The position numbers and the translations under genes are program-made. Shown in pieces: positions 798 through 46,317 of a stretch of DNA of 64,000 nt; position 1 is the first letter of the stretch, and each line of letters begins with the position of its first letter. Under the pieces are notes generated by a model. The model made no database searches. It saw nothing but the letters and a program-made list of their open reading frames with translations, and was not told the origin of the DNA. Source of the stretch: Candidatus Omnitrophota bacterium (GTDB taxonomy: Bacteria; Omnitrophota; Omnitrophia; Omnitrophales; Aquincolibacteriaceae); assembly GCA_903884815.1 (NCBI GenBank), contig CAISGE010000002.1:45955-109954 (forward strand), in the 5' to 3' direction.

Positions 798-3651
<2,854 letters not shown>

Positions 3652-3683: not shown

Positions 3684-4784
3684 TTAGTTAAGCTGCATCG
3701 GCATGATCACGTAAAGATACCCTTCTCGCCCGCGTATCAACCCCGGCTTGTCGGGACTTGTCAGGGAGATGCTAATATTTTCATCAGATAAATTCTTCAG
3801 CACGTCTAAAAAATAGACGGGGTTAAACCCAATCGTGATCTCTTCCCCTTTAAAAACGGCGGAAAGCTCTTCTTTCGCCTCCCCCATATTGGGTGTTTTC
3901 GCGGAAACAATAACTTTGTTTTTAACGAAATCAAATTTGAGCGCCGGCGCTTCCGCGGAAGTTAGTAAGGTTGCTCTCCGGACAGCCTGGAGGAATTCCT
4001 CTCTATTTGCCTGAACGGTCGTTTTTTATTATTTCGGGATCACTTTATCATAGTTTGGAAAATTCCCCTCAATAAGGCTCGAGGTCAGAAAGGTGTCTTC
4101 GAAAGAAAAAATAATTTTATTTTGGGTGTGGACGATTTTCACCACCCCTTCCCACTCCAATAATTTTAAAAGCTCGTGGATGGTTTTTGCAGGTATGATC
4201 ATTTCCGCGCTTTTTGTGTTCTTTTGCTTGGTTTCTTTTTTATAAAAAGCAAGCCTTCGCCCGTCGGTCGCCACAAAGCGGAGTTGATTCCCTTGAATCG
4301 AAAGAAGAACGCCATTTAAAACATATCTTGTTTCGTCATGGGAGATCGCGAACGCTGTTAAAGAAAGGCTTTCTTTAATAACCGCTTGTTCTATCTCTAT
4401 CGCTTCCTCTAAAGAAAAATCAGGGAGTTTTGGGTATTCCTCTTTATCTAATCCCATAATTTTAAAATGGGACTTCCCTGCTTTAATATTCACTGTGTTG
4501 TTTTTCGTTACGGTGACTTCTACAATTCCCTCAGGGAGTTCTTTAATAATATCAAAAAATTTTCTTGCCGGAACCGTGATGCTTCCTGGTTGGATGATCT
4601 CCACGGGAAGAAGCGTGGAAATCCCAACCTCCATATCTGTGGCAACAATCTTCAACTTACCTTCTTTTTGAGTCTCAAGAAGAAGATTGTTTAAAATGGG
4701 AAGAGTGCTAGGTTTTGAGGCGGCAATATTCACACCTAAGGTAATTTTTTTTAAGAGATCACTTTTTTGAACCTTTATCTCCAT
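3684..4784 (-). pseudogene. dnaN: DNA polymerase III beta sliding clamp, interrupted by two consecutive in-frame TAA codons at 4026-4031.
   Basis: The N-terminal fragment 4029-4784 (MEIKVQKSDLLKKITLGVNIAASKPSTLPILNNLLLET...FPNYDKVIPK) and the C-terminal fragment read in the same frame. Manual translation across the gap gives ...YDKVIPK * * KTTVQANREEFLQAVRRATLLTSAEAPALKFDFVKNKVIVSAKTPNMGEAKEEL...YLYVIMPMQLN. The total is 367 codons, which matches full-length DnaN including the C-terminal MPM(R/Q)L signature. The minus-strand sequence reads aaa TAA TAA aaa acg. Confidence 0.6.
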
Positions 4785-4917: not shown

Positions 4918-6306
4918 CTACTTTTTCAACAGTCCCAAAAGTTTTTCCAGCAAAAGACGAACCTCGACATCTTGGTCCCGTTCTTTTGCGATCTTAGAAC
5001 AAGAGTGGAGTACGGTGGTGTGATCTTTCCCGCCAAAAAATTCTCCGATCTCTGGAAGCGAGTGAGTTGTGAGCTCCCGAATAAGATACATCGCGATCTG
5101 GCGAGGGCGAACAATAGAAACTGTCCGCCGCTTGGCCCGAAGGTCCGAAACCTTCACATTAAAATAATCAGCCACCACCTTTTGAATACCCTCTATGGTA
5201 AACTTCTGGGATTCTTCCTTAAAAGCGTCTTTAAGCACCTCTTGAGCGAGACGGACATCGATCTTGGAGTTTGTAAGGGTGCAATATGCCACAACCCGGA
5301 TCAAGGCGCCCTCTAACTCTCGGATATTAGACTTAATTTTTCCAGCGATAAAATAGGCCACATCATCAGGCACCACAACGGTTTCCCTCTCCATCTTCTT
5401 TTTTAAAATAGCAACGCGCGTCTCAAAGTCTGGCGGTTGAATATCAGTTACGAGACCCCAGCCAAAACGGGAGACGAGGCGCTCCTCAAGACCCGGGATT
5501 TCCTTGGGGGGGCGGTCGCTTGTGACGACGATTTGCTTATGAGCATCGTAAAGAGTGTTGAATGTATTAAAAAACTCTTCCTGGGTGGAGTCTTTTTCAG
5601 CAATAAAATGGACATCGTCTATTAGCAAGAGGTCGAGAGTGCGATACTTTGCTCGAAATTGAGGCGTGGACTTTGTTTGTATCGCGGTGATCAGCTGGTT
5701 GGTGAATTTCTCGCTGGAAATGTACAAGATCTTGAAGTCCGGGTGACGCCGCTTCATTTCATGGGCAATAGACTGCAAAAGATGGGTTTTCCCGAGACCT
5801 GTGGGCCCGTAAATGAAGAGAGGGTTGTACTGTTTGGCCGGAGACTCGCTGACTGCTACCGAGGCAGCATGGGCAAAACGATTCCCAGGACCGATCACGA
5901 AGTCATCAAAGGTATAGCGCTGATTCAGCCCCACAAGAGCCTCTTCCCTTTCTTTCGGGGATTGCGGCGCCGAGGCCGGGAGAGAGGGGGCAGCCCTAGG
6001 AGGCTCCACCACCCGATAGATAATTTTTAAAGAATGGCCAAAAACATCCTCAACCGAAGAGAGGATCAGGTTTTGGTAATGGTCTTCGAGCCATTTTCCG
6101 TAATATTGGTCCGGGACGCTCAGGGTTAAAGCCTCAGGAGAAACCTCAAGCAAAGAAACCGGCTCAAACCAGGTTTTGAAGGAGCGTTCGCTCAATTCCC
6201 GGGAAAGGATCAAGCAAATCTTTTTCCAAAGCTCCACAGCGGAAGTGTTCGCTAGAGGTAAAAGAGGTGATGTCATAGGAAGAAAAAGCTTTCCATTGTT
6301 ATCCAC
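4918..6306 (-). CDS. dnaA: Chromosomal replication initiator DnaA.
   Basis: The 462 aa ORF has the AAA+ Walker A motif (GPTGLGKTHLL), a sensor and Walker B region (LLLIDDVHF) and a C-terminal DNA-binding domain (IAMYLIRELTTHSLPEIGEFFGGKDHTTVLHSCSKI). The 6306 start is a GTG. An in-frame ATG at 6274-6276 (MTSPLLPL...) is an alternative start. Confidence 0.95.
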   Translation of the reverse strand: MDNNGKLFLPMTSPLLPLANTSAVELWKKICLILSRELSERSFKTWFEPVSLLEVSPEALTLSVPDQYYGKWLEDHYQNLILSSVEDVFGHSLKIIYRVVEPPRAAPSLPASAPQSPKEREEALVGLNQRYTFDDFVIGPGNRFAHAASVAVSESPAKQYNPLFIYGPTGLGKTHLLQSIAHEMKRRHPDFKILYISSEKFTNQLITAIQTKSTPQFRAKYRTLDLLLIDDVHFIAEKDSTQEEFFNTFNTLYDAHKQIVVTSDRPPKEIPGLEERLVSRFGWGLVTDIQPPDFETRVAILKKKMERETVVVPDDVAYFIAGKIKSNIRELEGALIRVVAYCTLTNSKIDVRLAQEVLKDAFKEESQKFTIEGIQKVVADYFNVKVSDLRAKRRTVSIVRPRQIAMYLIRELTTHSLPEIGEFFGGKDHTTVLHSCSKIAKERDQDVEVRLLLEKLLGLLKK

Positions 6307-6620
6307 AAGTTGTTAATAGGATAATATTGATTATTTATCAAAACGTATTCGAGAACAAAAAAAATGACACAAAAGCATAAATAGCTTATAAACACGTTAT
6401 CCACAAGAAGAAAAAGGCCAAAATAAATGTTCGTCCCCCAGAAGGAGACGAACAGATGTGGATGCGAAAAGGATTCTACAGCAAAAAAGGTATTTGTCCA
6501 CGAGGAAACAAAAATATTTTTCAAACAAGATCTGAAAAACGCACAAAGCCTTTTTTGCCCAACTAGAAACAAAAGCCAAACAAAAGGCTGGATATTCCAA
6601 ACAAACTTCACTATAATCCC
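6299..6620. promoter_or_regulatory. Candidate oriC and dnaA/rpmH promoter region, containing a DnaA-box cluster in AT-rich DNA.
   Basis: Perfect TTATCCACA boxes occur at 6299-6307 and 6397-6405. Variants are GCATCCACA (minus strand near 6455) and TTGTCCACG (near 6494). Among them lies an AT-rich tract (aatattgattatttatcaaaacgtattcgagaacaaaaaaaatgacacaaaagcataaatagcttataaacacg). A TATAAT sequence sits at 6612-6617, immediately upstream of rpmH. Confidence 0.6.
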
Positions 6621-6626
6621 CGCCTC

Positions 6627-6764
6627 ATGAAAAGAACATACCAGCCTTCCAAGAGAAAACGTCGTAACAAGCACGGCTATCTTGCCCGAAAGAAGACGGC
6701 GGGAGGACGAAAAGTCCTCGCAGCGCGCCGTAAAAAAGGGCGGAAAAAGCTGACCCAAGTCTAG
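6627..6764 (+). CDS. rpmH: 50S ribosomal protein L34 (45 aa).
   Basis: Manual translation gives [45 protein letters not shown]. It is below the track's 60 aa cutoff. It occupies the classic position upstream of rnpA. Confidence 0.9.
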
Positions 6765-6843
6765 CGCTGTGTCGACATTGATTTTACGGTTCACCGCGCT
6801 ACCTCGTGGCCCCGTAAAAATCAAACAGACACGGTGGTAAGCG

Positions 6844-24049: not shown

Positions 24050-25303
24050 TTGCGAAAAGAACAAAATTCGAAAGGAGAGGCTCTCATGATCATCAAACAA
24101 ATGCTCAAAGACAGGACGCTGACGGACAAGGAGAGAAAAAATCTCGCCATTCTCGAAGTAGTCCGCAAGAATGGCCCCATCTCCCGCACCGATATTTCCA
24201 AACTCACCGAGCTGAACATCGTCACTGTCTCCAATTATGTGAGCCATTACATCAAAAAAGGCCTCATGATCGAGGGAGAACTGGATGAATCGACGGGCGG
24301 CCGCAAGCCGGTGCTCGTGGAGCTCAACCCCAAGGCGGGCTACATTGTCGGCGTGGGCCTCAACATGATGAGCATGGTCGCGGTCTTAGTGGACCTTGAG
24401 ATCAATGTCATTAGCGAGATCAAGCGCGAGCGGGCTCCGGAAAATTCCGAAACCGTCATCCTCCAGATGGTGGATCTTGCTGCTGAGATCATTGAAAAAG
24501 CCGAGATCGATAAGTCCAAGATCGTCGGCCTCGGGGTCGGTATCCCCGGCATCATCGATGAACGCGGGCGGACGATCCGCTGGCCGCAAAGCCTGGGCGA
24601 CAAGGATATCTCGGTCTGCTCCTCTATTAAGGACACCTTTGAAAAGCGACTCAATATTCCCACGATCGTGGAGAATGACGCGAACGCGGCGGTGCTCGGA
24701 GAGAAATGGCTCGGCCTTGATCGCGATGTACGGAACATGGTGTATATGTTTTCGGGCGTCGGCTGCGGCATTTTAATCAATGAGGAGATCTACCGGGGAG
24801 CGAACGGCGCCGCGGGAGAGCTCGGGATTACGAGCACGCACGCCAGCAAAGACTATTCGTTTAAGATCGCGACGCAACTCGGCCGCTGGGAAATGGATAT
24901 CGGCATGGTCCGTCACGCCAAGGAACGCATCGAAAAAGGGGAGCCTTCGCTCCTCAAAGATCTCGTGAAGGGCGACCTTTCGAAGATCACGTTCCGGGAG
25001 ATCGTCAAGGCCATCAAGGAAAAAGACGCGGTCGCGCTCAAGGTGGCAGATCAAGCCGGGCAAGATCTCGGCAAAAAGATCGCCTTCATCGTGAACCTTC
25101 TCAACCCGGAAGTGGTCGTGATCGGCGGCGGCATTGAGGATTGCGGCGCGGTGCTCCTGGATTCGATCAAGAACACCATCAAGGAATGGTCCGTGGAAGA
25201 AGCCGCGACGCAGGTCAAGATCATTCCGTCCGCTTTCGGCGAAAATGCCGTGGCGCTCGGCGTGGTCGGCATTGTGGCCCGCGAAATCTTCGCGCAGGCT
25301 TAA
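24050..25303 (+). CDS. ROK-family transcriptional regulator (NagC/XylR-like).
   Basis: An N-terminal wHTH (LAILEVVRKNGPISRTDISKLTELNIVTVSNYVSHYIKKGLM) is followed by a ROK sugar-kinase-like fold (GVGLNMMSMVAVLVDL..., IVENDANAAVLGEKWLG, ELGITS). The start is likely the ATG near 24086. Confidence 0.75.
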   Translation: MRKEQNSKGEALMIIKQMLKDRTLTDKERKNLAILEVVRKNGPISRTDISKLTELNIVTVSNYVSHYIKKGLMIEGELDESTGGRKPVLVELNPKAGYIVGVGLNMMSMVAVLVDLEINVISEIKRERAPENSETVILQMVDLAAEIIEKAEIDKSKIVGLGVGIPGIIDERGRTIRWPQSLGDKDISVCSSIKDTFEKRLNIPTIVENDANAAVLGEKWLGLDRDVRNMVYMFSGVGCGILINEEIYRGANGAAGELGITSTHASKDYSFKIATQLGRWEMDIGMVRHAKERIEKGEPSLLKDLVKGDLSKITFREIVKAIKEKDAVALKVADQAGQDLGKKIAFIVNLLNPEVVVIGGGIEDCGAVLLDSIKNTIKEWSVEEAATQVKIIPSAFGENAVALGVVGIVAREIFAQA

Positions 25304-25315
25304 AGCCGTTTCTTT

Positions 25316-26377
25316 TTGACGCCACCGATGAAAGCCTTCATTCAGGAGCTTAAGTCCCGGGTTCTCTCGGGCGGGGCCATCACTCAAGAAGAAGCCCTTC
25401 GTCTCGTTTCGATAGAGGACGTTTCCACCCGCGAGATTTTGGCCGAAGCCGCGCACGCGCTCACCGAAAAATTCTGTCCCTCCAAACCCGATCTCTGTTC
25501 TCTTGTGAATGCCAAAAGCTATCTTTGTTCCGAAGACTGCGGCTTTTGTTCCCAGTCTTCACATTACAAGACCGGCGTGAAGCGTTACCCGCTGATGCGG
25601 CCCGAAGAGGTGCTGGTACAGGCTCAAACGGCTGAGGCGAACGGGGTGCAAAGTTTTTGTGTGGTGACAAGCGGCGAGACCTTGAATGACGCGGAATTCG
25701 AACAAGTTCTCGCGACCTTCCGGCTTTTGACCGAGAAAACCGGACTTCGGCTTGACGGCTCGCTTGGGAATCTTACGGCGGAACAGGTCCGGAAATTACA
25801 GGAAGCTGGCATGCGTCGCTTTAACCACAATCTCCAGTGCTCGCGCGAGTTTTATCCCGAAATCGTGTCCACCCATACCTACGACGAGCGAATGGAGACT
25901 TTAAAGTTCCTGGAGCAGAACGGAGTGGAAGTTTGTTCCGGCGGCATTTTCGGCATGGGGGAAACGCGGGAGGACAGGATCCGTCTCGCCTTCGAGCTTA
26001 AACCTTATGACCTGCACTGCCTTCCCATTAATATCCTGAACCCGCGGCCGGGAACGCCGTTGGAAAGCCGTCTTCCGATCGATCCGGCGGAGATCCTCAA
26101 GACCGTCGCGATCTACCGCTTCATTCATCCGAGAGCGAATATCAAGCTCGCCGGCGGCCGGGAGCTCAATCTCGGCGTTTATTTTCAGGAAAAAGCCTTG
26201 CGCGGCGGTGCGAACGGTTTTGTGGTCGGCGGGTATCTCACCACCACCGGCAACCCTCTTGGCGAGGATTTCGACATGCTTCGGCGCGCGGGTTTTTCAG
26301 TGGAAGCGGGCCGCGAGCAAAGCTGCTGCTGTGAGACGCAGGCGGGATGCTCCTCCGGTTGCGGACAAAAAAGTTAA
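25316..26377 (+). CDS. bioB: Biotin synthase.
   Basis: It carries the radical-SAM motif CSEDCGFCSQS and the BioB-specific FNHNLQCSREFYPEIVSTHTYDERMETL with a C-terminal [2Fe-2S] region. The likely start is the ATG at 25328. Confidence 0.9.
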   Translation: MTPPMKAFIQELKSRVLSGGAITQEEALRLVSIEDVSTREILAEAAHALTEKFCPSKPDLCSLVNAKSYLCSEDCGFCSQSSHYKTGVKRYPLMRPEEVLVQAQTAEANGVQSFCVVTSGETLNDAEFEQVLATFRLLTEKTGLRLDGSLGNLTAEQVRKLQEAGMRRFNHNLQCSREFYPEIVSTHTYDERMETLKFLEQNGVEVCSGGIFGMGETREDRIRLAFELKPYDLHCLPINILNPRPGTPLESRLPIDPAEILKTVAIYRFIHPRANIKLAGGRELNLGVYFQEKALRGGANGFVVGGYLTTTGNPLGEDFDMLRRAGFSVEAGREQSCCCETQAGCSSGCGQKS

Positions 26378-26389
26378 ACCAGCCTTGGA

Positions 26390-27113
26390 AATGCTCCTTA
26401 AAGATAAAACGATCCTTATCACCGGCGGAACAAGCACCCTCGGGCAAGCCTTTGTCCGGAAAGCGTCCACCGCAGGAGCCCGCGTTTTTTTTACTTATTT
26501 CAACTCTTCCGTCGTGGCCCGCGAACTTGAATCCTGCGGGGCAATGGGCCTTCCTCTGGATCTCGCTGACATGCGGGCGATCGATGCTTTTGTTGCGGAG
26601 TTCACAAAAAAAGCAGGGGGGCTCGACATCCTGATCCATAATGCCGCCGCGTTCGCGAATGCGCTCATCGAGCAAATGACCGAAAAGCAGTGGGACGATG
26701 TTCTTCGGGTCAACCTCAAGGCGCCTTTTTATCTGACGCGAAAACTTCTGCCCCTTCTCATGCAGAAAAAGCCGAGTAAGGTTTTTATGATGATCAGCCG
26801 TACGGGTTTAAGCGGGCTTGCCGGCGCCGCCAATTACGCGGCCTCCAAAGGGGGGCTGATCGCGATGACCAAGTCGTTAGCCAAAGAGCTGGGGCGGAAG
26901 AAGATCCTGGTGAATGGCGTGAATCCAGGGTTTATGGAGTCCGGCATGACCCGGAGCCTTTCCGAAAAAACGCTTCAGATAAATCTCGAAGAAAGCCCCC
27001 TCAAAAGTTACTCGGACCCTGAAGAAGTCGCTGATTTTCTCGTCTACCTTGCTTCTGACCAGATGCGGCAAGTCACGGGGCAAGTGTTTCATTTTGAATC
27101 CCGGCCTTTCTAA
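26390..27113 (+). CDS. SDR-family 3-oxoacyl-ACP reductase-like protein (FabG-like), embedded in the biotin cluster.
   Basis: It has a Rossmann fold (ILITGGTSTLGQAF) and a catalytic NYAASKGG region. The start is an ATG at 26390 (MLLKDKTIL...). The track ORF start at 26208 lies inside bioB. Confidence 0.7.
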
Positions 27114-27158
27114 GGTAGAATTTTCTCCTACTTCACACCGGAAGGAGTTCCCCAGAAC

Positions 27159-28364
27159 ATGAAACGACGCGTCGTAGTGACGGGCATGGGCGTGCTTTCT
27201 CCGATCGGCAATACGCTTGCCGAATTCCGCGAGAATCTCAAGGTGGGCGTCTGCGGTAAAGACAGCAAAGACTATATGACCGCAGGAGGCTACAGGTTCC
27301 CGCCGGTGTTTCCCCTCAAGGACTTCAGCCCGCGTCCTTACAACACGCAGCTACACGATCCTTTTATACAATATGCCGTCGCTGCTGCGGAGCAAGCCGT
27401 CGCTGACGCGCATTTCGATCTCAAAGCGGTTGATCCATACACGATCGCCCTCTCTGTGAGCTCCAGCAAAGGCGGCGTCCACAGCCTTGGCCGTTTCAAA
27501 GAGCGATTTCTCCGTAGTCCGAGCGCGATGCTGGGGGCGCGGATGTACACGAGCGCGGTCCCCAATTTCGCCGACCAGTGGATCGCCCGGCGCATGAAGA
27601 TCCAGGGGCCGGCCAAATGTTATGTCGCGGCTTGCGCAACTGGCACCGTGGCGATCACCCAGGGGTTTCGCATGGTCTCGGAAGGTCAGGCCGAATATTG
27701 TCTCGCGGGGGCGACCGACGCTTCGATCACGCCGCTGATGCTCGGAGGCTACGACAGTATGAAGGCGCTGGCAAAGCACGATATTCGTCCGTTCGACAAG
27801 CGGCGCGACGGCTTTCTGGTTGGCGAGGGGGCGGGCGTGGTCTTTCTCGAGACCCTTGAGAGCGCTAAGGCGCGCGGCGCCCGGATCTACGGCGAGATCA
27901 TCGAAGCAGCTAACGGACAGGACAGCAAACATCCCATTCAGTTCGATCTTGAGGAACACGCACTGTCGTACACTTTGAATGTCCTTTTGAAGCGCGCCGG
28001 GATCACGGCGCGGGAGATCGACTACATCAATCTGCATGGCACTGGAACGCGGCATGGTGATCTTTATGAAACGTTGGAGCTTAAAGAGGCGTTCGGAAGC
28101 GCGGCCTATAAGATCCCGATGAGCTCCACCAAAGGCGCGACGGGGCATATGCTCGGGGCGACCGGCGCGATTGAGATCATCGCGACGATTCTCGGGATCG
28201 ACGAAGGCTTTGTGCCACCGACACTGGGACTGGAAGAAAATGATCCTGAGTGCGATCTCGATTACACGCCGCTTAAGATGCGTCCACACAAAATTACGAA
28301 TGCGATCAAACTCTCCATGGGGTTTGGCGGAAATGTCGCTGCTATTCTATTGCGCAAGGTATGA
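27159..28364 (+). CDS. Beta-ketoacyl-ACP synthase I/II-like enzyme (FabF/FabB family), embedded in the biotin cluster.
   Basis: The thiolase-fold KAS has the active-site Cys (AACATGTVAI) and two catalytic His residues (HGTGTRHGD, GHMLGATGA). It begins VVVTGMGVLSPIGN and is 401 aa. Confidence 0.8.
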   Translation: MKRRVVVTGMGVLSPIGNTLAEFRENLKVGVCGKDSKDYMTAGGYRFPPVFPLKDFSPRPYNTQLHDPFIQYAVAAAEQAVADAHFDLKAVDPYTIALSVSSSKGGVHSLGRFKERFLRSPSAMLGARMYTSAVPNFADQWIARRMKIQGPAKCYVAACATGTVAITQGFRMVSEGQAEYCLAGATDASITPLMLGGYDSMKALAKHDIRPFDKRRDGFLVGEGAGVVFLETLESAKARGARIYGEIIEAANGQDSKHPIQFDLEEHALSYTLNVLLKRAGITAREIDYINLHGTGTRHGDLYETLELKEAFGSAAYKIPMSSTKGATGHMLGATGAIEIIATILGIDEGFVPPTLGLEENDPECDLDYTPLKMRPHKITNAIKLSMGFGGNVAAILLRKV

Positions 28365-29503
28365 AAAACAACTATCGCCAGGAACTCGAAGAGCTGAAAC
28401 AAAAAAACCTCTACCGTCGTCTCCGCGTCCTTGAGGGAAATGAAGGAACACGGGCCGTTTTCGAGGGCCGGAAGATCCTCCTTTTCTGTGGCAATGATTA
28501 CCTGGGACTCAGCCGTCACCCGCGAGTGATGGTCGCCGCGCACCAGGCGATCGATCGCTACGGCGTGGGTGCGCGTTCAGCCAGGCTGATCGCCGGGACC
28601 ACCGAGGCGCACGCTTCCCTGGAAAAAAAGATCGCGGAGTTCAAAAACAAGGAAGCCGCGCTCGTTTTTGGCTCCGGCTTTCTCGCAAATCTCGGGATCC
28701 TGACCGCTTTCGCGGACAAAGATGATGTCGTGGTCATGGACAAGCTGTGCCACGCGTCGCTGATTGACGGGGCGAGACTTTCCGGGGCGGAGCTCCGCGT
28801 CTTTCCGCACAAGAATTATGAGAAATGTGAAGAGATCCTAAAAAAATGTACGGCCCCCCGGAAGCTTCTTGTGACGGAGAATGTTTTCGGCATGGACGGA
28901 GACCGGGCAGATCTTCCGGCGCTGATACGTCTCAAGAAAAAATACGGCGCGCTCCTCATTGTGGATGACGCGCATGGCACCGGGATCTTTAAAAAAACCA
29001 GCCCCGGTTCGACGGCGCATTTCTCCAAGGGCATCGATGTGATCATGGGAACGCTTTCCAAGGCCATTGGCGGACTCGGGGGGTTTGTGGCGGCGGACCA
29101 GGAACTGATCGATCATCTGGTCAATTTCGCGAGGCCTTTCATTTTCGCGACAGCCCTGCCGCCTGTCCTTTGCAAAGCCGCGCGCGAGGCTTTTTGTGTG
29201 ATCGAAGAGGAGCCGGGGCTTCTCAAGAAGCTATGGACGAATATTCGCGAAGTTCATCAGGGGCTCACGAAGCTTGGTTTCTCTCTCGCTAAGCCCGAGT
29301 CCGCGATACTGCCCGTGATCCTGGGCGACGAGGGGAAGGCCATGGCTGCCTTTGAAAAGCTTCTCGCTCACGGACTCTTTATTCCCGCAGTCCGCTATCC
29401 GACCGTGCCCAAAGGCAAAGCGCGCCTCCGCATTACCGTCTCCGCCGCTCATACGGCCCAGGACATTCAAACGCTTCTCAAGGCATTCAAGGCCCTGGCA
29501 TGA
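28361..29503 (+). CDS. bioF: 8-amino-7-oxononanoate synthase.
   Basis: This PLP-dependent acyl-CoA/ACP:amino-acid C-acyltransferase has a PLP Lys region (GTLSKAIGGLGGFVAAD) and an N-terminus LFCGNDYLGLSRHP. Its start overlaps the KAS stop (ATGA). Confidence 0.85.
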   Translation: MKNNYRQELEELKQKNLYRRLRVLEGNEGTRAVFEGRKILLFCGNDYLGLSRHPRVMVAAHQAIDRYGVGARSARLIAGTTEAHASLEKKIAEFKNKEAALVFGSGFLANLGILTAFADKDDVVVMDKLCHASLIDGARLSGAELRVFPHKNYEKCEEILKKCTAPRKLLVTENVFGMDGDRADLPALIRLKKKYGALLIVDDAHGTGIFKKTSPGSTAHFSKGIDVIMGTLSKAIGGLGGFVAADQELIDHLVNFARPFIFATALPPVLCKAAREAFCVIEEEPGLLKKLWTNIREVHQGLTKLGFSLAKPESAILPVILGDEGKAMAAFEKLLAHGLFIPAVRYPTVPKGKARLRITVSAAHTAQDIQTLLKAFKALA

Positions 29504-29597
29504 AAACGGCCCCGGACGCCCCATTGAAAGTGAAGGATTAGGAGGTATTTGTGAAACTGGAGAAAGAAGCGAGAGCGCAGAAAAGGGGATTGTGGAA

Positions 29598-30080
29598 ATG
29601 AAAAAGTGTCCGATGTGCGCGGAAAAAATTCAAGACGAAGCGATTTTGTGCCGCTTCTGCGGAAAATCGACGGATCCGACTCGCCCCAAGATGGGCGCTC
29701 AGAAATGGTTGTGGGCTTTAGCCCTGCTGCTCTTAGCAACCTCGGGCCTTTATATAATTGGCTTGCAACAGTCAACTTCGGCAAAATCGCGAAATGTTTC
29801 GAACGAAGCAAAGGGGCGCCCCTCTCCGCGAGCGTACTCGACGGAGAATACCTCGGGCTACAGTGTGTTTAGCGTGGACCGTAAGTTTAATTTTGTGGTG
29901 GCTAAAATCGGGCTACAGGATGGGATCAAGAAAGGGGACTTGTTGAAAGTCTTCAAGGGTGGCAAAGAGATTGCCACGATCAAGGTCGAAAAACTTTATG
30001 ATGCATTCTCCGCTAGCGGGATTCTCAGGGAGGACTTGTCGCAACGCATAGAGGAAGGTGATGAAGTACGAAAGCTGTAA
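29598..30080 (+). CDS. Zinc-ribbon membrane protein (160 aa).
   Basis: The protein begins MKKCPMCAEKIQDEAILCRFCGK (a CxxC...CxxC ribbon), followed by one transmembrane segment and a C-terminal soluble domain. The start is the ATG at 29598. The track ORF 29352 overlaps bioF. Confidence 0.5.
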   Translation: MKKCPMCAEKIQDEAILCRFCGKSTDPTRPKMGAQKWLWALALLLLATSGLYIIGLQQSTSAKSRNVSNEAKGRPSPRAYSTENTSGYSVFSVDRKFNFVVAKIGLQDGIKKGDLLKVFKGGKEIATIKVEKLYDAFSASGILREDLSQRIEEGDEVRKL

Positions 30081-30404
30081 ATGGAAAGGATTGAACGGAT
30101 GAGTCATGAAACGAAGAACCTTAAGGTGCTGCTTCTCGTGGCTGCGCTGATGATGTGCGTTGCGGTGATTCCGAATCTGCCGCAGGTTTTCTTCACGCTC
30201 CTGCGATGGGTCGTTTGCGGCGCGGCGGCCTACGCGGCTTATAGGCTAAGGCTGAATCCGAAACTTAGCCGTCACTTCGTCCCGCTCGTAATCGTGGCAG
30301 CGCTCTTTAATCCCTTGGTGCCGGCGCCTCTGACGCTGCTCCTCTGGCTCCTGCTCGATCTCGCTGGCGCCGTTTATTTCCTGCAGCTATCCAAGAAACT
30401 TTAA
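30081..30404 (+). CDS. Small hydrophobic membrane protein (107 aa).
   Basis: It has three predicted transmembrane segments. Its stop overlaps the zinc-ribbon gene. Its function is unknown. Confidence 0.4.
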   Translation: MERIERMSHETKNLKVLLLVAALMMCVAVIPNLPQVFFTLLRWVVCGAAAYAAYRLRLNPKLSRHFVPLVIVAALFNPLVPAPLTLLLWLLLDLAGAVYFLQLSKKL

Positions 30405-30411
30405 TGCTCGG

Positions 30412-31563
30412 TCAGACGGTTCTGCGAAGGATAGGGATTCGCTGGATCAGGAGCACTGCGAGGAGCGATAGAAAGTAAACAGTCGACGCAACGAAGGGGA
30501 TGATAAAAGCCGGATGCCAGATGTTCGACCGGAGGGTGAAACCCCAACGCCCGTGATTCAGAACGTCGATGAACGTGGGGTGTATCAAATAGATCCCGAA
30601 ACTTGCTCCCGCCACCAGGCCCGTCATGCGGCGCCACCTACCGGTTACCTTTTTCCCCATCATTGGGGAGGCCTGCTTCAGCAAGATGAAAAAAGCGGCG
30701 GCGAAAAATAAGTGGTTGGGCGCCATGTTGTCATAGAAAATCGTCGAGAAGGAGTGGATGCGGGCGCAAGCCCAGGCCGTTCCGAAGAAACACACGAGAA
30801 GGCTGAGCCCCCATACAAGCCAGGCCGTCGGAACAGTCTTTTCTGAAGCGTATTTCCGGAGAAAATAGCCCAACACGAAATATCCGACGAAGCCTTGCAC
30901 CGGTTCGATCACCAGCTTGATATGGAACGGGTGGCCGACGAGCCCCGCCAGGCTTTCCACAAACGGTAGAAGGAAGCTGACCAAGAAACAAAGCCCGAGA
31001 AAATAGCCCAGGTCCTTCTTTGAGGCGTTTGCGACAAGGACGCGTAGCCACGGGGTGATCAGATAAAGTCCGATTAGCACATACATGAACCAGAGATGGA
31101 AATACACACGGTCGGTCGCAAAGCGCCTGAGCATTTCCGCAGGGCCGAGGGTGGGTTCATAAAAATGACGCCGCCACAGGAGATAAAAAAGGCTCCAGGC
31201 GAGGAAGGGAATAAGTACCCGGCCGAAGCGCTTGCGGAAAAAGGCACGGTAGCTTTCGGCCTGCGGAAGCAGCAGAGCTCCGCTCAACATAATGAAGATT
31301 GCGACGGGGCCTCGGGCGAGGGAATCATAAAAATTAGCCGCCCCCCACCAACTATTTGGAAGCGTACCCCATTCGGTAATGACGTCGGCGGCGACATGGA
31401 TCACGACCACACTCCACATCGCGATCACGCGTGCTACGTCGACCCAAAGAAGGTCCTCTGGCGGCGCCTTTGTTGTTGACGGGTTTGTTTGAGGCATGCC
31501 TCTTTTATCGGCAAGTGATGGAAATAACAAAGCTTTTGGATACGGCGCCTTAGACGGTCCCAA
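30412..31563 (-). CDS. Membrane O-acyltransferase of family 3 (OatA/OafA-like).
   Basis: It has about 10 transmembrane segments and the family-3 N-terminal pattern (VDVARVIAMWSVVVIHVAAD...). It is 383 aa from the track start. The start is more likely the internal ATG at 31495-31497 (MPQTNPST...). Confidence 0.6.
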   Translation of the reverse strand: MGPSKAPYPKALLFPSLADKRGMPQTNPSTTKAPPEDLLWVDVARVIAMWSVVVIHVAADVITEWGTLPNSWWGAANFYDSLARGPVAIFIMLSGALLLPQAESYRAFFRKRFGRVLIPFLAWSLFYLLWRRHFYEPTLGPAEMLRRFATDRVYFHLWFMYVLIGLYLITPWLRVLVANASKKDLGYFLGLCFLVSFLLPFVESLAGLVGHPFHIKLVIEPVQGFVGYFVLGYFLRKYASEKTVPTAWLVWGLSLLVCFFGTAWACARIHSFSTIFYDNMAPNHLFFAAAFFILLKQASPMMGKKVTGRWRRMTGLVAGASFGIYLIHPTFIDVLNHGRWGFTLRSNIWHPAFIIPFVASTVYFLSLLAVLLIQRIPILRRTV

Positions 31564-31576
31564 TCCTTATCATCCC

Positions 31577-31603
31577 GCCGCCACAAAGGCGGGATGGAGC
31601 CGT
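31577..31603. terminator. Hairpin (catcccgcc...ggcgggatg) followed by a T-run. It is a likely terminator or insulator between the acyltransferase and bioA.
   Basis: A perfect 9 bp stem catcccgcc/ggcgggatg flanks a 9 nt loop. ctgcttttttgg lies 13 nt downstream. Confidence 0.4.
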
Positions 31604-31714
31604 CCAAACTGCTTTTTTGGAAAAGAAATAGAAAGTTTGAACGGAGGTTGATTGAAGAATAGCAAGCCGTCTATAATTGACACCCATTAACGCGATAATG
31701 CTAAGGAACAAGGA

Positions 31715-33070
31715 ATGGAAAAGATGAAAACGGATGAGTTGATCGCGAAAGACCGGAAACACATCTGGCACCCGTTTACGCAGATGAAGGATTGGCAGGT
31801 CGATGACTTTCCGGTGATCGAGCGTGGCCAAGGGTGTTATTTGGTCGATACCGAGGGCCGCAGGTATCTCGACGGCGTGTCGTCCCTTTGGTGCAATGTG
31901 TTCGGGCACCGGGTCCCTGAGATCGATAAGGCGATCAAAAAGCAGCTCGGAAAGATCGCGCACACGACATTTCTTGGCCTCACGCATCCCACGTCGATCG
32001 AACTCGCAGGAAAACTGATCCGAGTCGCACCGAAAGGCCTCTCTCGTGTGTTTTATTCAGACTCCGGTTCTGAGGCGATGGAGATCGCGCTCAAGATGGC
32101 TTATCAGTACTGGCAGCAGCGCGGCGAGACGAAAAAGAAAAAGTTCGCAAAACTGACGAACGCTTACCACGGCGACACGATTGGATCGGTAAGTCTCGGA
32201 GGCATCGACCTTTTCCATCAGATCTATAAGCCGCTTCTCTTCGAGACGCTCGCGGTGCCGTCACCTTATCGCTATCGTTGGTCTTCCGGTGACGATCCGG
32301 AGCGAGTCAAAAAAGAATCACTCGAGGCGATGGAGAAAGCGTTGCGTGAGAATGCCGGCGAGCTTGCGGCGTTCGTGATGGAACCCCTCATGCAGGGCGC
32401 CGCCGGGATGATCGATCAGCCGAAGGGATATATTTCCCGTGCCAGAGAGCTGGCACGAAAGTATAATACGCTCCTAATTTTTGATGAAGTAGCGACCGGA
32501 TTCGGGCGGACGGGCAAGATGTTTGCCTCGGAGCATGAAGGTGTGACGCCGGACATTATGGCGGTGGCCAAAGGCATTACGGGAGGTTATCTTCCTCTTG
32601 CCGCAACCCTTGCGACAGAAGAGGTTTACGAGGCGTTTCTGGGGAAATACGAGGATTTCAAGGCTTTCTACCACGGCCACACGTACACGGCGAATCCGCT
32701 GGCGTGCGCGGCTGCGATTGCAACGCTTGATCTTTTTAAGAAGGACCGGACGATCGAAAAGCTTCAGCCGAAGATCCGGATGATGCAAAATCGCCTAAAA
32801 GATTTTTATAAACTCAAGGCGGTCGGTGATATCCGGCAGGTCGGCACCATGATTGGGATCGAGTTGGTCCTGAACAAAGCGACGAAAGAAAGTTTTAGAC
32901 CGCAAGAAAAGATCGGCGTTCGCGTGATCGAGAGCGCTCGTAAAAAAGGCGCGATTCTGCGGCCCTTGGGTCCCGTGATCGTTCTGATGCCGCCGCTTGC
33001 GATGACGGCGCGCGAGTTGGACAAGCTGTTCGATATTACGTATTCATCTATTGAGGAAACAACAGAATGA
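31715..33070 (+). CDS. bioA: Adenosylmethionine-8-amino-7-oxononanoate aminotransferase.
   Basis: The class III aminotransferase has the BioA N-terminus IWHPFTQMKDW and a PLP Lys region (AVAKGITGGYLPLAA). It is 451 aa. Confidence 0.9.
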   Translation: MEKMKTDELIAKDRKHIWHPFTQMKDWQVDDFPVIERGQGCYLVDTEGRRYLDGVSSLWCNVFGHRVPEIDKAIKKQLGKIAHTTFLGLTHPTSIELAGKLIRVAPKGLSRVFYSDSGSEAMEIALKMAYQYWQQRGETKKKKFAKLTNAYHGDTIGSVSLGGIDLFHQIYKPLLFETLAVPSPYRYRWSSGDDPERVKKESLEAMEKALRENAGELAAFVMEPLMQGAAGMIDQPKGYISRARELARKYNTLLIFDEVATGFGRTGKMFASEHEGVTPDIMAVAKGITGGYLPLAATLATEEVYEAFLGKYEDFKAFYHGHTYTANPLACAAAIATLDLFKKDRTIEKLQPKIRMMQNRLKDFYKLKAVGDIRQVGTMIGIELVLNKATKESFRPQEKIGVRVIESARKKGAILRPLGPVIVLMPPLAMTARELDKLFDITYSSIEETTE

Positions 33071-33834
33071 AAGCTGGAATATTCATCACAGGAACGGACA
33101 CGGACGCGGGAAAAACCGTGGTCTCCGCGGGGTTGGCGCTGGTTCTCCGGGATCGCGGAATGAAAGTCGGCGTGATGAAGCCTGTCGCGACCGGCTGCTA
33201 CGGTGCGGATGAGCGGCTGATCTCGCAGGACGCGGCCTTTCTAATGGAAGCCGCGCAAAACGAATACCCGCCGCTGACGAGCCCTTCGCGTTACCGCAAC
33301 CCTCTTTCGCCCAATGTTGCGGCGATGCTCGAGAAAAGAGAAGTCGATGTTCCCGCCATTCTTAAAAGCTACCAGCAACTTCAAAAACATTATGATTTTA
33401 TGATCGTCGAGGGGATCGGCGGCCTGATGGTCCCTCTGAAAAAAGATTATTACGTGGCAAATTTGATCCGCGACATGGGGCTCCCTATTGTCATCGTGAC
33501 TTACGCGGGCCTCGGCGCGATCAATCATACGTTACTCACAGTCGATGCGGCCATGATCCGGGGAATCGAGGTCCGGGGGATCATTTTCAACCGTGTCTCC
33601 GTGACGAATTATTCTCTGGCCGAGCTTACCAATCCGAAAGTTATACACGATCTTTCCGGCGTTCCCGTTCTCGGCAGCCTTCCCGATATCCAGGGTCTTA
33701 ATCTAGAAAACTGCCAGTTTGGAAAACTCAAGGACATCTTTCGGGAACGCATCCAGATCGATAAGATAGTCGGTCCCAACACCTATCAACCGGAGCAAAG
33801 CGGAGGTTGGGGTCGTCCAAGCCACCCTTCATGA
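33067..33834 (+). CDS. bioD: Dethiobiotin synthetase.
   Basis: It begins with a P-loop (IFITGTDTDAGKTVVSAGLA) and has the BioD fold. Its start overlaps the bioA stop (ATGA). Confidence 0.85.
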   Translation: MKAGIFITGTDTDAGKTVVSAGLALVLRDRGMKVGVMKPVATGCYGADERLISQDAAFLMEAAQNEYPPLTSPSRYRNPLSPNVAAMLEKREVDVPAILKSYQQLQKHYDFMIVEGIGGLMVPLKKDYYVANLIRDMGLPIVIVTYAGLGAINHTLLTVDAAMIRGIEVRGIIFNRVSVTNYSLAELTNPKVIHDLSGVPVLGSLPDIQGLNLENCQFGKLKDIFRERIQIDKIVGPNTYQPEQSGGWGRPSHPS

Positions 33835-33904: not shown

Positions 33905-35197
33905 TTGTCTTTAAAGCTTCCACTCGGTATTCGTCTCGAGAGAAAAAAAGATGCCAGCCTTCTGAACTGGAACCTCAAGCGTCCTTACCCGCCTGAAAAG
34001 ATCCGCGTGCCCGTGCCTTTCAATGCAGAGCCCTGCGTTCGTATCGGAGACAAGGTGGTGACGGGACAAAAGATCGCGGAAGCGAATGGGACGGAAGGCG
34101 TCAGCGTTCACGCAGGCATGTGTGGGACTGTGGAAAAGGTCGCGGAATATCCGGATCCGACGGGGAAGCAAAGCTTGATGATCGAGATCCGTAGATACGG
34201 CGAGCCCAAGCCCAGTGCGCCTTGGGATCTTCGGAAAGATTGGGAGCAGATCCCCGCGGAGCAACTTGCCGGGATATTCCGGAATGCCGGACTGGTGACG
34301 ACGGGTCCGCGAAGCGAGCCGGTGCATGTGAAGCTCGCCCGTCACGCCGCAGCGCGAACGCTCGTGATCAATATCTGCGCACCCGAACCTTATATCACCT
34401 GCGAGCTGGTGCTCGCAATGTCCCATCCCGTGGAGATCCTGAGAGGCGCCGAACTTTTACGAAAAGCCTGCCATGCCGAGAAAGTTGTGTTTGCGTTGGA
34501 AGATTCGAACCGGGAAACGGCCGAGCTCATCAAGAGCAAGATCTACTTTCTTAAGTGGACACACGCGGAAGTGCGGACGGTCCCCGCCATTTACCCCCAG
34601 GGACTTGAAAACACACTGCTCCAGGCCTGGTTTTCCGGAGAAGAAGACCAGGCTTTGGTTTTTCCCGCGTCCACCGCCTTCGCGGTCTACGAAGCGGTTG
34701 CGCTCGGGAAGCCTTTTTATGAGAGGGTGGTGACGGTGGGCGGCGAGTGCGTGGTCGAGCCGCGCAGTCTCTGGCTCCCTCTGGGTATCTCCTTTCACGA
34801 CGCGATCCGCACGTGCAAAGGCGTGATGCGCGAACCCCGCAAGGTTTTGATGGGGGGTCCCCTGGCAGGGACTGCGCAAGCCAGCCAGGAAGTGCCTTTG
34901 ATGGCTTCCACGAATGCCGTTCTGGCGCTTCCTCAGGAGATCGTCACGGAAGCGGAGCGGTCTGCCGAACCCTGTATCCGCTGCAATCTTTGTGTGGACC
35001 ATTGCCCGGCCGCCCTTTCGCCCGCGATGATCACTCTGGCGGCGGAAGCGAAAGAGTTCGCCATTGCCCGTGAATGGGATGCTGCGGAGTGTTTTGAATG
35101 CGGTATCTGCGCGTATGTGTGCCCCTCGAAGCGGCCGATGCTTGAACTGATACGCGCCGCGAATCACCCGGCGGAAAAGAAGGTGGCTCATGTCTGA
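33905..35197 (+). CDS. RnfC-like subunit that retains 2x[4Fe-4S] motifs but lacks the NADH/FMN-binding glycine motifs.
   Basis: It has an N-terminal RnfC barrel-sandwich region (PFNAEPCVRIGDKVVTGQKIAEANGTEGVSVHAGMCGTVEKV) and C-terminal ferredoxin motifs (CIRCNLCVDHCP, CFECGICAYVCP). Where canonical RnfC has GGAGFP and INGAECEP, this protein has LVTTGPRSEP and INICAPEPY. Confidence 0.55.
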   Translation: MSLKLPLGIRLERKKDASLLNWNLKRPYPPEKIRVPVPFNAEPCVRIGDKVVTGQKIAEANGTEGVSVHAGMCGTVEKVAEYPDPTGKQSLMIEIRRYGEPKPSAPWDLRKDWEQIPAEQLAGIFRNAGLVTTGPRSEPVHVKLARHAAARTLVINICAPEPYITCELVLAMSHPVEILRGAELLRKACHAEKVVFALEDSNRETAELIKSKIYFLKWTHAEVRTVPAIYPQGLENTLLQAWFSGEEDQALVFPASTAFAVYEAVALGKPFYERVVTVGGECVVEPRSLWLPLGISFHDAIRTCKGVMREPRKVLMGGPLAGTAQASQEVPLMASTNAVLALPQEIVTEAERSAEPCIRCNLCVDHCPAALSPAMITLAAEAKEFAIAREWDAAECFECGICAYVCPSKRPMLELIRAANHPAEKKVAHV

Positions 35198-36044
35198 AGA
35201 GAAGCCTTCCTTTGCGCAAAGTCTTCCGCCGCATATTCGCTCCACGGATTCTCTCACGAAGCGGTCCTGGGGACGAACCCTCGCGCTGCTTCCGCTTTTG
35301 CTCGCAGCCTGCTTGACTGGACACGCTCAGATCTTACGCGTGCTTTTGCTCTGTCTGGTGAGCGCGGTCGCGTTCGAATTCCTGGCGAAGAAACTTTTAA
35401 GAAAAAAAGAGGAGCTGCGGAACGGCGAAACGGTGCTGGTCGCGGTCCTTTTCTCGCTCCTGATGCCCTCACGTTGTCCCTCGGAGCTGGTGATCCTGGG
35501 CGTTTTTTTAGCGGTCGTCATGGGTAAAGAACTTTTCGGCGGAACTGGGGGGTATCCTTTGCCACCGGCCTTGATGGCCCGCGCGATACTCCAACTCAGT
35601 TTTCCGAAAGTGATGGCTGAGCCGATGCTTTTGGCGGGGGATGTCAGTCCCTGGTTGGTCGTGGCGATAGGGCTTGGCGGGATCCTTCTCCTGCGACAAA
35701 AAAAAAGTTATTGGGAGACTCCCGTTCTTTTTACGGCTGTTTGTTTTATCTGCGGTGATCTCTGGGGCGGAGCTGAGGTGCCCACTGCTTTTTTGAGCGG
35801 CGTTCTCTTTACGGCTTTTTTTCTCCTCGCGGATCCCGTGACACTGCCGCTGACGCGAAAAGGGAGCGCATTGTTTGTCTTGGGAGCCGCGATATTAAGC
35901 TCGACCCTTGATCCCCATGGGTTTTCGATCGGCGCGGTTGTCTTCGCCGTTCTTTGGATGAGCCTTTTGACGCCCTGGCTGGATGTTTGGCTCAAGCCGG
36001 TTCCGTTTATATTCAAACGTTTGATCAAGGCGACTTACCCGTGA
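35190..36044 (+). CDS. RnfD/NqrB-like membrane subunit lacking the flavinylation loop.
   Basis: The motifs MGKELFGGTGGYPLPPALMARAIL and LLADPVTLPLT align with RnfD FGG..NPFNPA and L.DPVT. The periplasmic loop that carries the D-x-x-s-G-A-T FMN-attachment motif is absent. The protein is 284 aa against about 350 for canonical RnfD. Confidence 0.5.
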   Translation: MSEEKPSFAQSLPPHIRSTDSLTKRSWGRTLALLPLLLAACLTGHAQILRVLLLCLVSAVAFEFLAKKLLRKKEELRNGETVLVAVLFSLLMPSRCPSELVILGVFLAVVMGKELFGGTGGYPLPPALMARAILQLSFPKVMAEPMLLAGDVSPWLVVAIGLGGILLLRQKKSYWETPVLFTAVCFICGDLWGGAEVPTAFLSGVLFTAFFLLADPVTLPLTRKGSALFVLGAAILSSTLDPHGFSIGAVVFAVLWMSLLTPWLDVWLKPVPFIFKRLIKATYP

Positions 36045-44368: not shown

Positions 44369-45439
44369 ATGAGAATCCGAGAGCGTTTAGAAAAAACCGA
44401 GGCGAGGTTCCGCGAACTCGAGGCTTTGATGGGCAGCCCTGACACGCCCCCGAGCAAGTTCCAGGCCCTGAACAAGGAGCTGTCTTTGATCAAGCCGATC
44501 ATGGACCTTTTTCAGAAATACAAGGGCACGGAGCACGAGCTCGTGGGGTTGAAACACAGCTTGGCGGAGAGCCAAGGCGATGAGGCCATGAAAAGTCTGA
44601 TCTCCGATGAGCTCGCGACGCTCGAGGCCGGACAAATCGATCGGGAAAGTAAACTCGAGGAGCTTTTTCTCCGCGACATGCAGCCGGATGCGGCGCGCGA
44701 TGTGATCGTGGAGGTGCGCGCGGGGACCGGAGGCGAGGAGGCCGCGCTTTTCGTGGCGGATCTTTTTCGCATGTACAGCATGTATGCCGGGAATCACGGG
44801 TTGCGCGTCGAAGTGATCGACTCCAATCCCACGGGGATCGGCGGTTTCAAAGAGATCATTTTCGGCGTGACGGGCGACCGGGTTTTCAGCTTTTTTAAAT
44901 ATGAAAGCGGGATCCACCGTGTCCAGCGCGTGCCCAAGACCGAAGCGAGCGGGCGCATCCATACTTCGGCCGTGACGGTCGCGGTACTGCCGGAGGTCGA
45001 GGAAGAAGAGGTTGTGATCAATACAGACGATCTCAGGATCGACGTGTATCGCGCCTCCGGGGCCGGGGGGCAGCACGTGAACAAGACCGAGTCCGCGGTG
45101 CGCATCACGCATATGCCGACGGGATTCGTGGTCGCGTGCCAGGACGAGCGGTCTCAGCAGAAAAACAAGACGAAGGCCATGCGCATTTTGCGGGCGAAGA
45201 TCTTTGATTTCCAGAGGGCGAAGCAGCAAGCGGAGCAGGCGCAGAATCGCAAGGCGCAGATCGGCTCCGGGGACCGGTCCGGCAAGATCCGGACTTATAA
45301 TTATCCGGACAATCGCCTGACGGACCACCGGATCGGGCTCACGCTTCACAGTCTGAACCAGATCTTGGATGGGAAATTGGACCCTGTCGTTGAGGCTCTC
45401 GCGGAAGATGAAAAGGTCCGGTTGCTGACGACATTATGA
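44369..45439 (+). CDS. prfA: Peptide chain release factor 1.
   Basis: It has the GGQ motif (GAGGQHVNKTESAVRITH) and an RF1-type tripeptide in RVQRVPKTEASGRIHTS (a PxT class; PKT is also found in mitochondrial mtRF1a). prmC lies immediately downstream. Confidence 0.9.
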   Translation: MRIRERLEKTEARFRELEALMGSPDTPPSKFQALNKELSLIKPIMDLFQKYKGTEHELVGLKHSLAESQGDEAMKSLISDELATLEAGQIDRESKLEELFLRDMQPDAARDVIVEVRAGTGGEEAALFVADLFRMYSMYAGNHGLRVEVIDSNPTGIGGFKEIIFGVTGDRVFSFFKYESGIHRVQRVPKTEASGRIHTSAVTVAVLPEVEEEEVVINTDDLRIDVYRASGAGGQHVNKTESAVRITHMPTGFVVACQDERSQQKNKTKAMRILRAKIFDFQRAKQQAEQAQNRKAQIGSGDRSGKIRTYNYPDNRLTDHRIGLTLHSLNQILDGKLDPVVEALAEDEKVRLLTTL

Positions 45440-46317
45440 GCGGTTCGAAAAAATTGAAAAGTAACGAGATCTTCGAGTTGATCGCCCAGGGTCGCGAGGG
45501 GCTTTCGCGGGCGGGGATCGAGGAAGGGCAGGAAGAATGCGAACGCATCTGGATGAAGCTTTTGGGATGCGCGCGTTCCGCCATCTATCTCGAAAAGCAT
45601 GAGCTGGCGCTTTCCGGCGCGCGCGAACGATTTTTGGCCATTCTTGAGAGGCGGGCTCAAAGGATCCCGTTGGCTTATCTTTTGAAGGAAGTCGATTTTT
45701 GGCAGGAAACATTGTTCGTGGATGAGCGTTGTCTTATCCCGAGGCCCGAAACCGAGATACTCGTCGAACAAGTCTTGAAAGCGCTCGGTACGGATTACGG
45801 CAAAAGTTTTTCTTTTTTGGATATCGGCACGGGTTCGGGAGCGATCGCGGCGGCGGTTCTTAATGCCTGTCCGAGCAGCCGGGGAACACTTCTTGATATT
45901 TCCGGAGAAGCGCTGGACGTGGCTCGCGAGAATGTGAAACGCTATGACCTGGAAGACCGGGCGAAACTCGTATGCGGCGATTTGTTTAACGCGTTGGATG
46001 CAAGTGATCGGTTTGATTGGATCGTGTCGAATCCGCCTTATTTGTCGGAGACGGATCTGAAAGAGCTCCAGGAAGAGCTGAAAGTCGAGCCCCGGCAGGC
46101 CTTGGATGGCGGAAAAGACGGCTTGGACTTTTACCGAAGGATTATCCGGGAGGCCTCGGGCCGTTTAAACCCCGGCGGGCGGTTGGCTCTGGAATTGGGG
46201 CAGGGGCAGGCGGAAAGGGTTTCAAAGTGGCTTCACGAGGCGGGTTATGATAATATCCACCGTTTCAAAGACCACTTGCAAGTCGAACGGGTCATTCTAG
46301 CCCAGAGGCATTCTTGA
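45436..46317 (+). CDS. prmC: Release factor glutamine N5-methyltransferase PrmC (HemK).
   Basis: It has a SAM-binding motif (LDIGTGSGAIAAAV) and the NPPY motif (IVSNPPYL). Its start overlaps the prfA stop (ATGA). Confidence 0.85.
   Translation: MSGSKKLKSNEIFELIAQGREGLSRAGIEEGQEECERIWMKLLGCARSAIYLEKHELALSGARERFLAILERRAQRIPLAYLLKEVDFWQETLFVDERCLIPRPETEILVEQVLKALGTDYGKSFSFLDIGTGSGAIAAAVLNACPSSRGTLLDISGEALDVARENVKRYDLEDRAKLVCGDLFNALDASDRFDWIVSNPPYLSETDLKELQEELKVEPRQALDGGKDGLDFYRRIIREASGRLNPGGRLALELGQGQAERVSKWLHEAGYDNIHRFKDHLQVERVILAQRHS

Follow-up and report, generated by a model that had tools for sequence, protein, structure and literature searches.

The 64,000-nt stretch of DNA analysed here (the window) belongs to a Candidatus Omnitrophota bacterium which is uncultured and recurs in many public lake metagenome assemblies. 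The minus strand carries, in this order, dnaA (4918-6276), dnaN (3684..4784), a DciA-family gene (3364-3651) and gyrB (798-3341). The second of these, encoding the DNA polymerase III beta sliding clamp, was identified from its translation, from Pfam and from the allele in public contigs. It is 1101 nt long, or 366 codons and a terminal TAA when conceptually translated from 4784 to 3684, and the translation has exactly two internal stops, a tandem TAA TAA at 4026-4031 (codons 252-253). The DNA around them reads CCG AAA TAA TAA AAA ACG, and the protein ...EGNFPNYDKVIPK, the two stops, and then KTTVQANREEF.... On both sides of the break the gene is that of an ordinary clamp. The three DNA_pol3_beta domains all score above the Pfam cut-offs (PF00712 at residues 1-121, E = 5e-39; PF02767 at 130-244, E = 2e-38; PF02768 at 247-363, E = 5e-26), the C-terminus is ...YLYVIMPMQLN, and solved clamp structures in the PDB match the translation end to end, with E-values of 1e-59 to 1e-62. 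When aligned with the E. coli clamp (PDB 1mmi), the stops take the place of N-P in ...VLPKNPDK..., where domain III starts. No frameshift or further lesion was found in dnaN, the remaining 1098 of 1101 nt being identical to an intact public allele (P0001).

A first-pass annotation of this DNA had described a frame of normal length with every domain in place through the C-terminal YVIMPMQL, broken by the tandem TAA and by no frameshift or truncation, at the point where E. coli has LPKNPDK. The translation, the Pfam domains, the comparison with the intact allele and the 1mmi alignment bear out this description in each respect, but the emphasis that it placed on the location next to oriC is not justified. 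In comparison with bacterial DnaN as known from E. coli (PDB 1mmi/2pol), the three domains, the length of 366 aa, the dnaA-dnaN-dciA-gyrB neighbourhood and the C-terminal ...MPM.L are all the same; the differences are the TAA TAA at 252-253 and a lysine at 247, which are found in the window record only and not in the public allele. It follows the same division that the uninterrupted frame giving domain III is absent in the window record and present in the public allele.

The break leaves two remnant ORFs, both on the minus strand. The N-terminal one (4029..4784) encodes 251 aa with domains I and II only, and is the product that would be translated from the window record; the C-terminal one (3684..3887) encodes 67 aa from an ATG at codon 300, the first possible restart past the stops. 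Judging from the reading frame, domain III cannot be made separately, as there is no restart before that codon. Domain III contributes one half each of the clamp's dimer interface and of its partner-binding cleft, and dnaN is an essential gene. A clamp truncated after domain II would be inactive, and a fixed allele of this kind would be expected to be lethal. Since the predicted product is inactive and the gene essential, an error is favoured, or at most a minority molecule that does not propagate.

Several other features of the region may be mentioned here. The G+C content of dnaN is 41%, compared to 53.5% for the window and 49-54% for the neighbouring genes, and this low value is genuine, being the same in all public contigs; together with the A/T runs of the gene it may contribute to poor coverage or base-calling there. 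A 173-aa ORF with no Pfam hit (6273-6794, minus strand) lies directly upstream of dnaA, overlapping its start by 4 nt; it sits in the rnpA-dnaA interval, a plausible place for oriC elements, and is uncalled in some assemblies. Farther along there is an ordinary biotin-synthesis cluster at 25328-33834 (bioB, a short-chain dehydrogenase, a ketoacyl synthase and bioF, then bioA and bioD), followed by RnfC/RnfD at 33905-36044. The start of a giant gene (54553-64000, plus strand) runs off the end of the window; in public contigs its product is 4193 aa long, with fn3, Cadherin_5, Big_9 and Ig_3 domains, and it has internal repeats of ~225 bp (59592-59810 and 62685-62909) that are 85% identical.

Public contigs of the same organism were found by exact-protein look-ups with the neighbouring genes (JGI 3300022555 and 3300009502, and several ENA assemblies), and cover 63,946 of the 64,000 bases of the window. 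The closest, JGI Ga0212088_10000143, shows only three differences in 45,076 bases compared, at 4028, 4031 and 4046; ENA ERZ27313102, compared over 11,797-63,946, shows a single one, which is unrelated. On the plus strand the window has A at both 4028 and 4031, where the public base is C. In the sense of the gene these are G>T changes turning GAA into TAA, the one at 4031 making the first stop and the one at 4028 the second. The third private base is a T at 4046 in place of a public G, which changes CAA to AAA (Q247K) 15 nt upstream of the stops. All three are preceded by TT on the plus strand. In a comparison of 63,946 nt, three random differences would cluster within 19 nt with a probability of ~3e-7. 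All of the whole-gene contigs fetched (JGI 3300022555; ENA ERZ18624653, ERZ27313164 and ERZ27313068) have GAA GAA and CAA at these positions, and the intact 366-aa DnaN that they encode reads ...NYDQVIPKEEKTTVQ.... This intact protein is indexed in 27 blocks (NCBI, JGI, Logan and ENA) and is found on at least 17 contigs. There was no exact match to the 251-aa truncated product in public protein records, nor to any of five guessed variants of it (with or without L236I, with or without Q247K, or with a single stop), and a full-length Q247K DnaN is absent from a collection of 15 billion proteins. As would be expected of an artefact, the dnaN stops are private to few assemblies, and independent assemblies agree with each other. 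The first-pass annotation had reasoned that sense codons in the reads would make the stops an error; sense codons have indeed been found, in assemblies instead of reads, so that the argument holds in spirit.

The same positions were compared in an alignment of 117 DnaN homologues with 60-100% identity, the best of which are annotated as Candidatus Omnitrophota. Position 247 is Gln in 116 of them and position 253 is Glu in 112, while position 252 is more variable (E in 75, G in 23, D in 9). None of the 117 has a stop at 252 or 253, or a Lys at the changed positions. By this measure all three private changes strike constrained codons. The codons of relatives, which the earlier annotation had thought worth comparing, are thus GAA GAA in the near-identical contigs and codons for E, G or D at 252 and for E at 253 among the homologues. 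One 85% identical DnaN (P0023) bears the NCBI label “Geobacteraceae bacterium”, although Omnitrophota is the label of all similar proteins; its MAG is probably mis-binned or mislabelled.

An in-frame stop in an otherwise intact, conserved and essential gene is the first sign by which readthrough or reassignment of stop codons comes to notice, and a frame perfectly kept on both sides of the stops is what functional recoding would preserve, whether TAA were efficiently read through or had been reassigned as a sense codon, with a full-length clamp made in either case. The usage of TAA in the rest of the window speaks against this. Among its 50 genes, called from identical public contigs, 23 terminate in TAA, 23 in TGA and 4 in TAG, and there are no internal stops in the other 49, dnaN alone being interrupted. 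The genes gyrB, mnmG and parA, from which TAA had initially been taken to be a genuine stop in this genome, do all end with it. Release factor 1 is encoded in the window by prfA (44429..45439, plus strand; Pfam PCRF/RF-1), followed by the release factor methyltransferase gene prmC (45436-46317; Pfam PrmC_N). RF1 reads UAA as well as UAG. With TAA a common terminator, RF1 present and 49 genes free of internal stops, the window shows none of the marks of a reassigned codon. Readthrough fares no better. Tandem stops in which the first TAA is followed by T are the strongest termination arrangement known in bacteria, and neither a tRNA gene nor any Rfam family or element was found within the 64-kb window. 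The tandem TAA and the lack of an Rfam match mean that neither a leaky stop context nor a stimulatory RNA element is seen at the dnaN stops, and the stop is not conserved in orthologues, being absent from the 117 homologues and replaced by GAA GAA in near-identical contigs. Known recoding systems affect many genes, are conserved in relatives and go with a lost or altered release factor, whereas here there is one gene, relatives have Glu, and RF1 is present; in the bacterial genetic codes 4 and 25, for example, UGA is reassigned to Trp or Gly. A literature search on stop-codon recoding in Omnitrophota found nothing relevant. Nothing in the window points to an altered genetic code or to a recoding signal, so far as can be judged from its genes and RNA elements, and the readthrough suggested earlier for this site has next to no probability in the light of these comparisons.

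Another reading is that dnaN has recently become a pseudogene in this strain, the loss being tolerated through a second clamp gene elsewhere. The gene has no other decay, as would be the case after a very recent event. Against this, a tblastn search of the 64-kb window and ~9 kb of sequence flanking it finds no second dnaN, and the gene is intact in the other assemblies of this population, which are identical outside it. Three clustered substitutions of the same class, and nothing else in 64 kb, are not the product of drift. The lesion of a pseudogene would be expected to be common to the lineage and accompanied by further decay, neither of which is seen, given the number of contigs with an intact copy and the identity of the rest of the gene. 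Pseudogenisation is accordingly regarded as highly improbable. A 366-aa gene without Pfam hits, located ~6.6 kb beyond the start of the window in one public contig (L005), was considered as a possible second dnaN and proved to be unrelated (best E 0.41).

The variant does recur. The product of the 67-aa remnant (P0121) is found on three contigs (NCBI, ENA), the longest of 184,991 bp, and a search with it led to a carrier contig, L019 (ENA ERZ18626762, BUCK21-1_SAMEA6872781_METAG-scaffold_392), which shares the window's three dnaN changes. This contig enters the gene from the gyrB side and ends at 4078, 47 nt past the stops. In its last 14 nt it has two extra changes, 4065 C>A and 4076 G>T (plus strand), at positions where the window is wild-type, and apart from these two it matches the window throughout. 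L022 (ENA ERZ27313102 k141_367908), a contig of another study, enters from the dnaA side and ends at 4063, ~15 nt from the end of L019; it is wild-type right up to its end. At least two assemblies, those of the window and of L019, thus have the three-base haplotype, and the 67-aa remnant is on a third contig as well, that of 184,991 bp. Several reads must therefore carry the variant, so that any error would have to be systematic instead of random, unless the assemblies derive from one shared read set, as they may. Since the window has three changes and L019 has five, there must be at least two kinds of variant read, which would take either a systematic error or a real minority allele. The variant site is a spot of repeated assembly breaks, and in L019 the density of changes rises towards the contig end. 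Error-laden read tails have this effect in de Bruijn-graph assemblies, where error density increases near a contig end. Contig ends or graph breaks of the kind that accompany an artefact are accordingly present on both sides, at 4078 (L019) and 4063 (L022). Another 67-aa call (P0124) was also considered as a variant carrier, and is irrelevant, coming from a 721-bp contig of a different, related species. In this 721-bp contig (ENA ERZ27300037 k141_390863), positions 1-55 are a Nextera transposase adapter fused to dnaN, a case of adapter contamination.

The recurrence also bears on whether the stops were put there deliberately, as an engineered tandem-stop knock-in or by a change made to the record after assembly. 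Two adjacent Glu codons made into stops by single-base changes do resemble a designed knockout, and an engineered insertion was among the options first listed. The organism is however uncultured and known only from metagenomes, a designer would have had no reason to add Q247K, and the three changes are found, with two more, in a public ENA contig (L019) that is independent of the window, so that the TAA TAA version did not originate here. An edit of either kind is scarcely credible on this evidence.

The changes in dnaN do not look like the differences otherwise found between assemblies of this organism. Genuine differences between public assemblies were found at 120 sites, mostly near contig ends in gyrB and in a ROK-family gene, and 62% of them are transitions. 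In gyrB a tract at 2049-2500 has 88 differences from a public contig (L003), at that contig's end; 81 of the 88 are at third codon positions and 83 are synonymous. The tract in the ROK-family gene (24691-24838) has 27 differences from another (L010), again at the contig end. Almost all differences in the two tracts are synonymous and at third codon positions, and they represent genuine recombination or variation between strains. Of the five changes in the dnaN cluster known from the window and L019, four alter the protein, two of them being nonsense, and conserved codons are struck; judged by its codons, it is unlike variation that has passed selection. All five changes are furthermore G>T or C>A, for which the chance would be ~1.3e-4 if the 12 substitution types were equally likely. 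Each of the two changes is the complement of the other, and the result therefore holds for either strand.

The changed bases also share a sequence context. On the plus strand this reads TTTTTT[C]TT[C]TTTCGGGATCACTT[G]ATC...AATT[C]CCC...AA[G]G, with the changed positions in square brackets. A T6 run (4022..4027) lies directly 5' of the first changed base and opens a T-rich stretch, TTTTTTCTTCTTT, for which it may act as the trigger of the changes that follow. Within 4015-4078, four of the six G/C sites preceded by TT are changed, compared to one of the 20 others (Fisher p = 0.0047). The rule has exceptions in both directions: the fifth changed site is preceded by AA, and the TT-preceded sites 4035 and 4057 are unchanged. 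Spectrum and context are nevertheless those of a platform error mode, with one class of change, four of five changes following TT, and a pattern unlike that of the natural differences. Two other sources of clustered change were considered and set aside. A template-switch or quasi-palindrome origin was assessed by eye; as the mutated version is farther from a palindrome than the wild-type GATCACTTGATC, the changes do not perfect a repeat. A diversity-generating retroelement does not match either, as the changes are at G and C and not at A, and are of mixed type on one strand.

In two-channel sequencing chemistry, T is labelled with one dye, C with the other, A with both and G with none (PMC10415152). 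Because of this assignment, G>T and C>A both correspond to an added signal in the T channel. The StratfreshDB lake metagenomes were sequenced on a NovaSeq 6000 (2x150) and assembled with MEGAHIT (PMC8121793), and to go by their name the “BUCK21-1_SAMEA...” assemblies appear to derive from that dataset. NovaSeq error rates for C>A and G>T are low on average, about 1e-5 to 1e-4 (PMC6417284), so a strongly context-dependent or run-specific effect must be assumed. An origin of C>A/G>T changes in 8-oxoG has been discussed as well (PMC6417284). A library artefact of this sort would give the same class of change; it fits less well than carry-over of T signal, because here one haplotype combines G>T with C>A, and the positions recur. 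The classic 8-oxoG artefact is found at random positions and low frequency (PMC6417284), whereas the dnaN variant recurs at the same sites, and the classic two-channel artefact is over-calling of G (PMC10415152), whereas the dnaN case is a gain in the T channel.

The stops are private to a minority of otherwise identical assemblies, they are associated with contig ends, and the changes belong to a single substitution class. Since they are absent from other assemblies, of one class and near contig ends, they are best explained as a read-level error fixed into the consensus. From the comparison of assemblies, the TAA TAA and Q247K would then be a base-calling or assembly error of the record and not a property of the organism, a reading to which a probability of about 85% is given here. 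The dnaN gene of this Omnitrophota population almost certainly reads CAA ... GAA GAA, as it does in the intact contigs, and would encode an ordinary 366-residue clamp. Among the four options offered by the first-pass annotation, this supports the sequencing or assembly artefact; the inactivation backed up by a second copy, the engineered insertion and the readthrough are the ones argued against above.

A possible course of events is the following. Illumina reads running in the plus direction of the window would cross the T-rich stretch TTTTTTCTTCTTT...CTTG and gain a spurious T-channel signal there, with T signal carried over into the next cycle of these plus-strand reads. In two-colour chemistry G, which is dark, would then be called as T, and C, which has a single colour, as A. 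In the assembly graph, k-mers with these bases might branch off as a tip or a second path, at a place of poor coverage or poor graph structure; one assembler could carry the wrong path into a long contig, giving the present window, while another could stop at the same place and leave an error-laden contig end such as that of L019. The assembly from which the window comes would be one of the NovaSeq/MEGAHIT lake dataset. For two-colour T-channel chemistry as the specific mechanism the odds are put at roughly even. Systematic Illumina errors and error-laden contig ends are like the present case in being of one class, in clustering on the scale of a read length, and in a density that rises to the contig end; they also share its recurrent, context-defined sites, the absence from other assemblies and what is apparently a two-channel dataset. 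They differ in that such errors are usually removed by coverage. Survival in a long contig is uncommon, and implies locally thin or one-sided coverage.

The main competitor of a read-level error is an allele that is real, though non-functional and in the minority: a clustered G:C>T:A mutation would be carried by part of the DNA molecules in the lake, and the assembler would have picked that allele. Such molecules could come from dead-end mutants or relic DNA, or from polyploid cells in which intact chromosome copies complement a mutated one. This would account for the same three-base haplotype in the window and L019 and for the 67-aa remnant on a third contig, and the breaks in assemblies of two studies fit a two-allele bubble in the reads; G:C>T:A is moreover the textbook in-vivo signature of 8-oxoguanine. 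It is less easily reconciled with five changes of the same class within 49 nt and no linked variation elsewhere in 64 kb, or with a strand that has both G>T and C>A, as a single-strand damage event would not give. An essential gene with two nonsense codons in tandem cannot be passed on clonally, and so such an allele should not recur or dominate a consensus. The rising density of changes towards the contig end is typical of error-laden read tails, and the intact allele is the one found on the 17 or more contigs counted above. A minority allele of this kind is considered unlikely. A bolder version, in which a tandem-nonsense dnaN truly segregates in wild Omnitrophota across samples, kept by polyploidy or complementation and produced by a localised oxidative burst of G:C>T:A changes at a structurally hypermutable site, would be very unlikely.

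If an error in the record is accepted, the case is first of all one of quality control: an error in the consensus of a public MAG appears to make an essential replication gene look like a pseudogene, and in a little-known phylum this could be misread as recoding, readthrough or gene loss. It also calls for caution in the annotation of this genome. Independent assemblies, substitution class, sequence context and distance to contig ends together offer a way to judge such calls that does not require the reads. If a real nonsense allele did persist after all, contrary to the balance of the evidence, the case would have implications for ploidy and for complementation in ultra-small bacteria.
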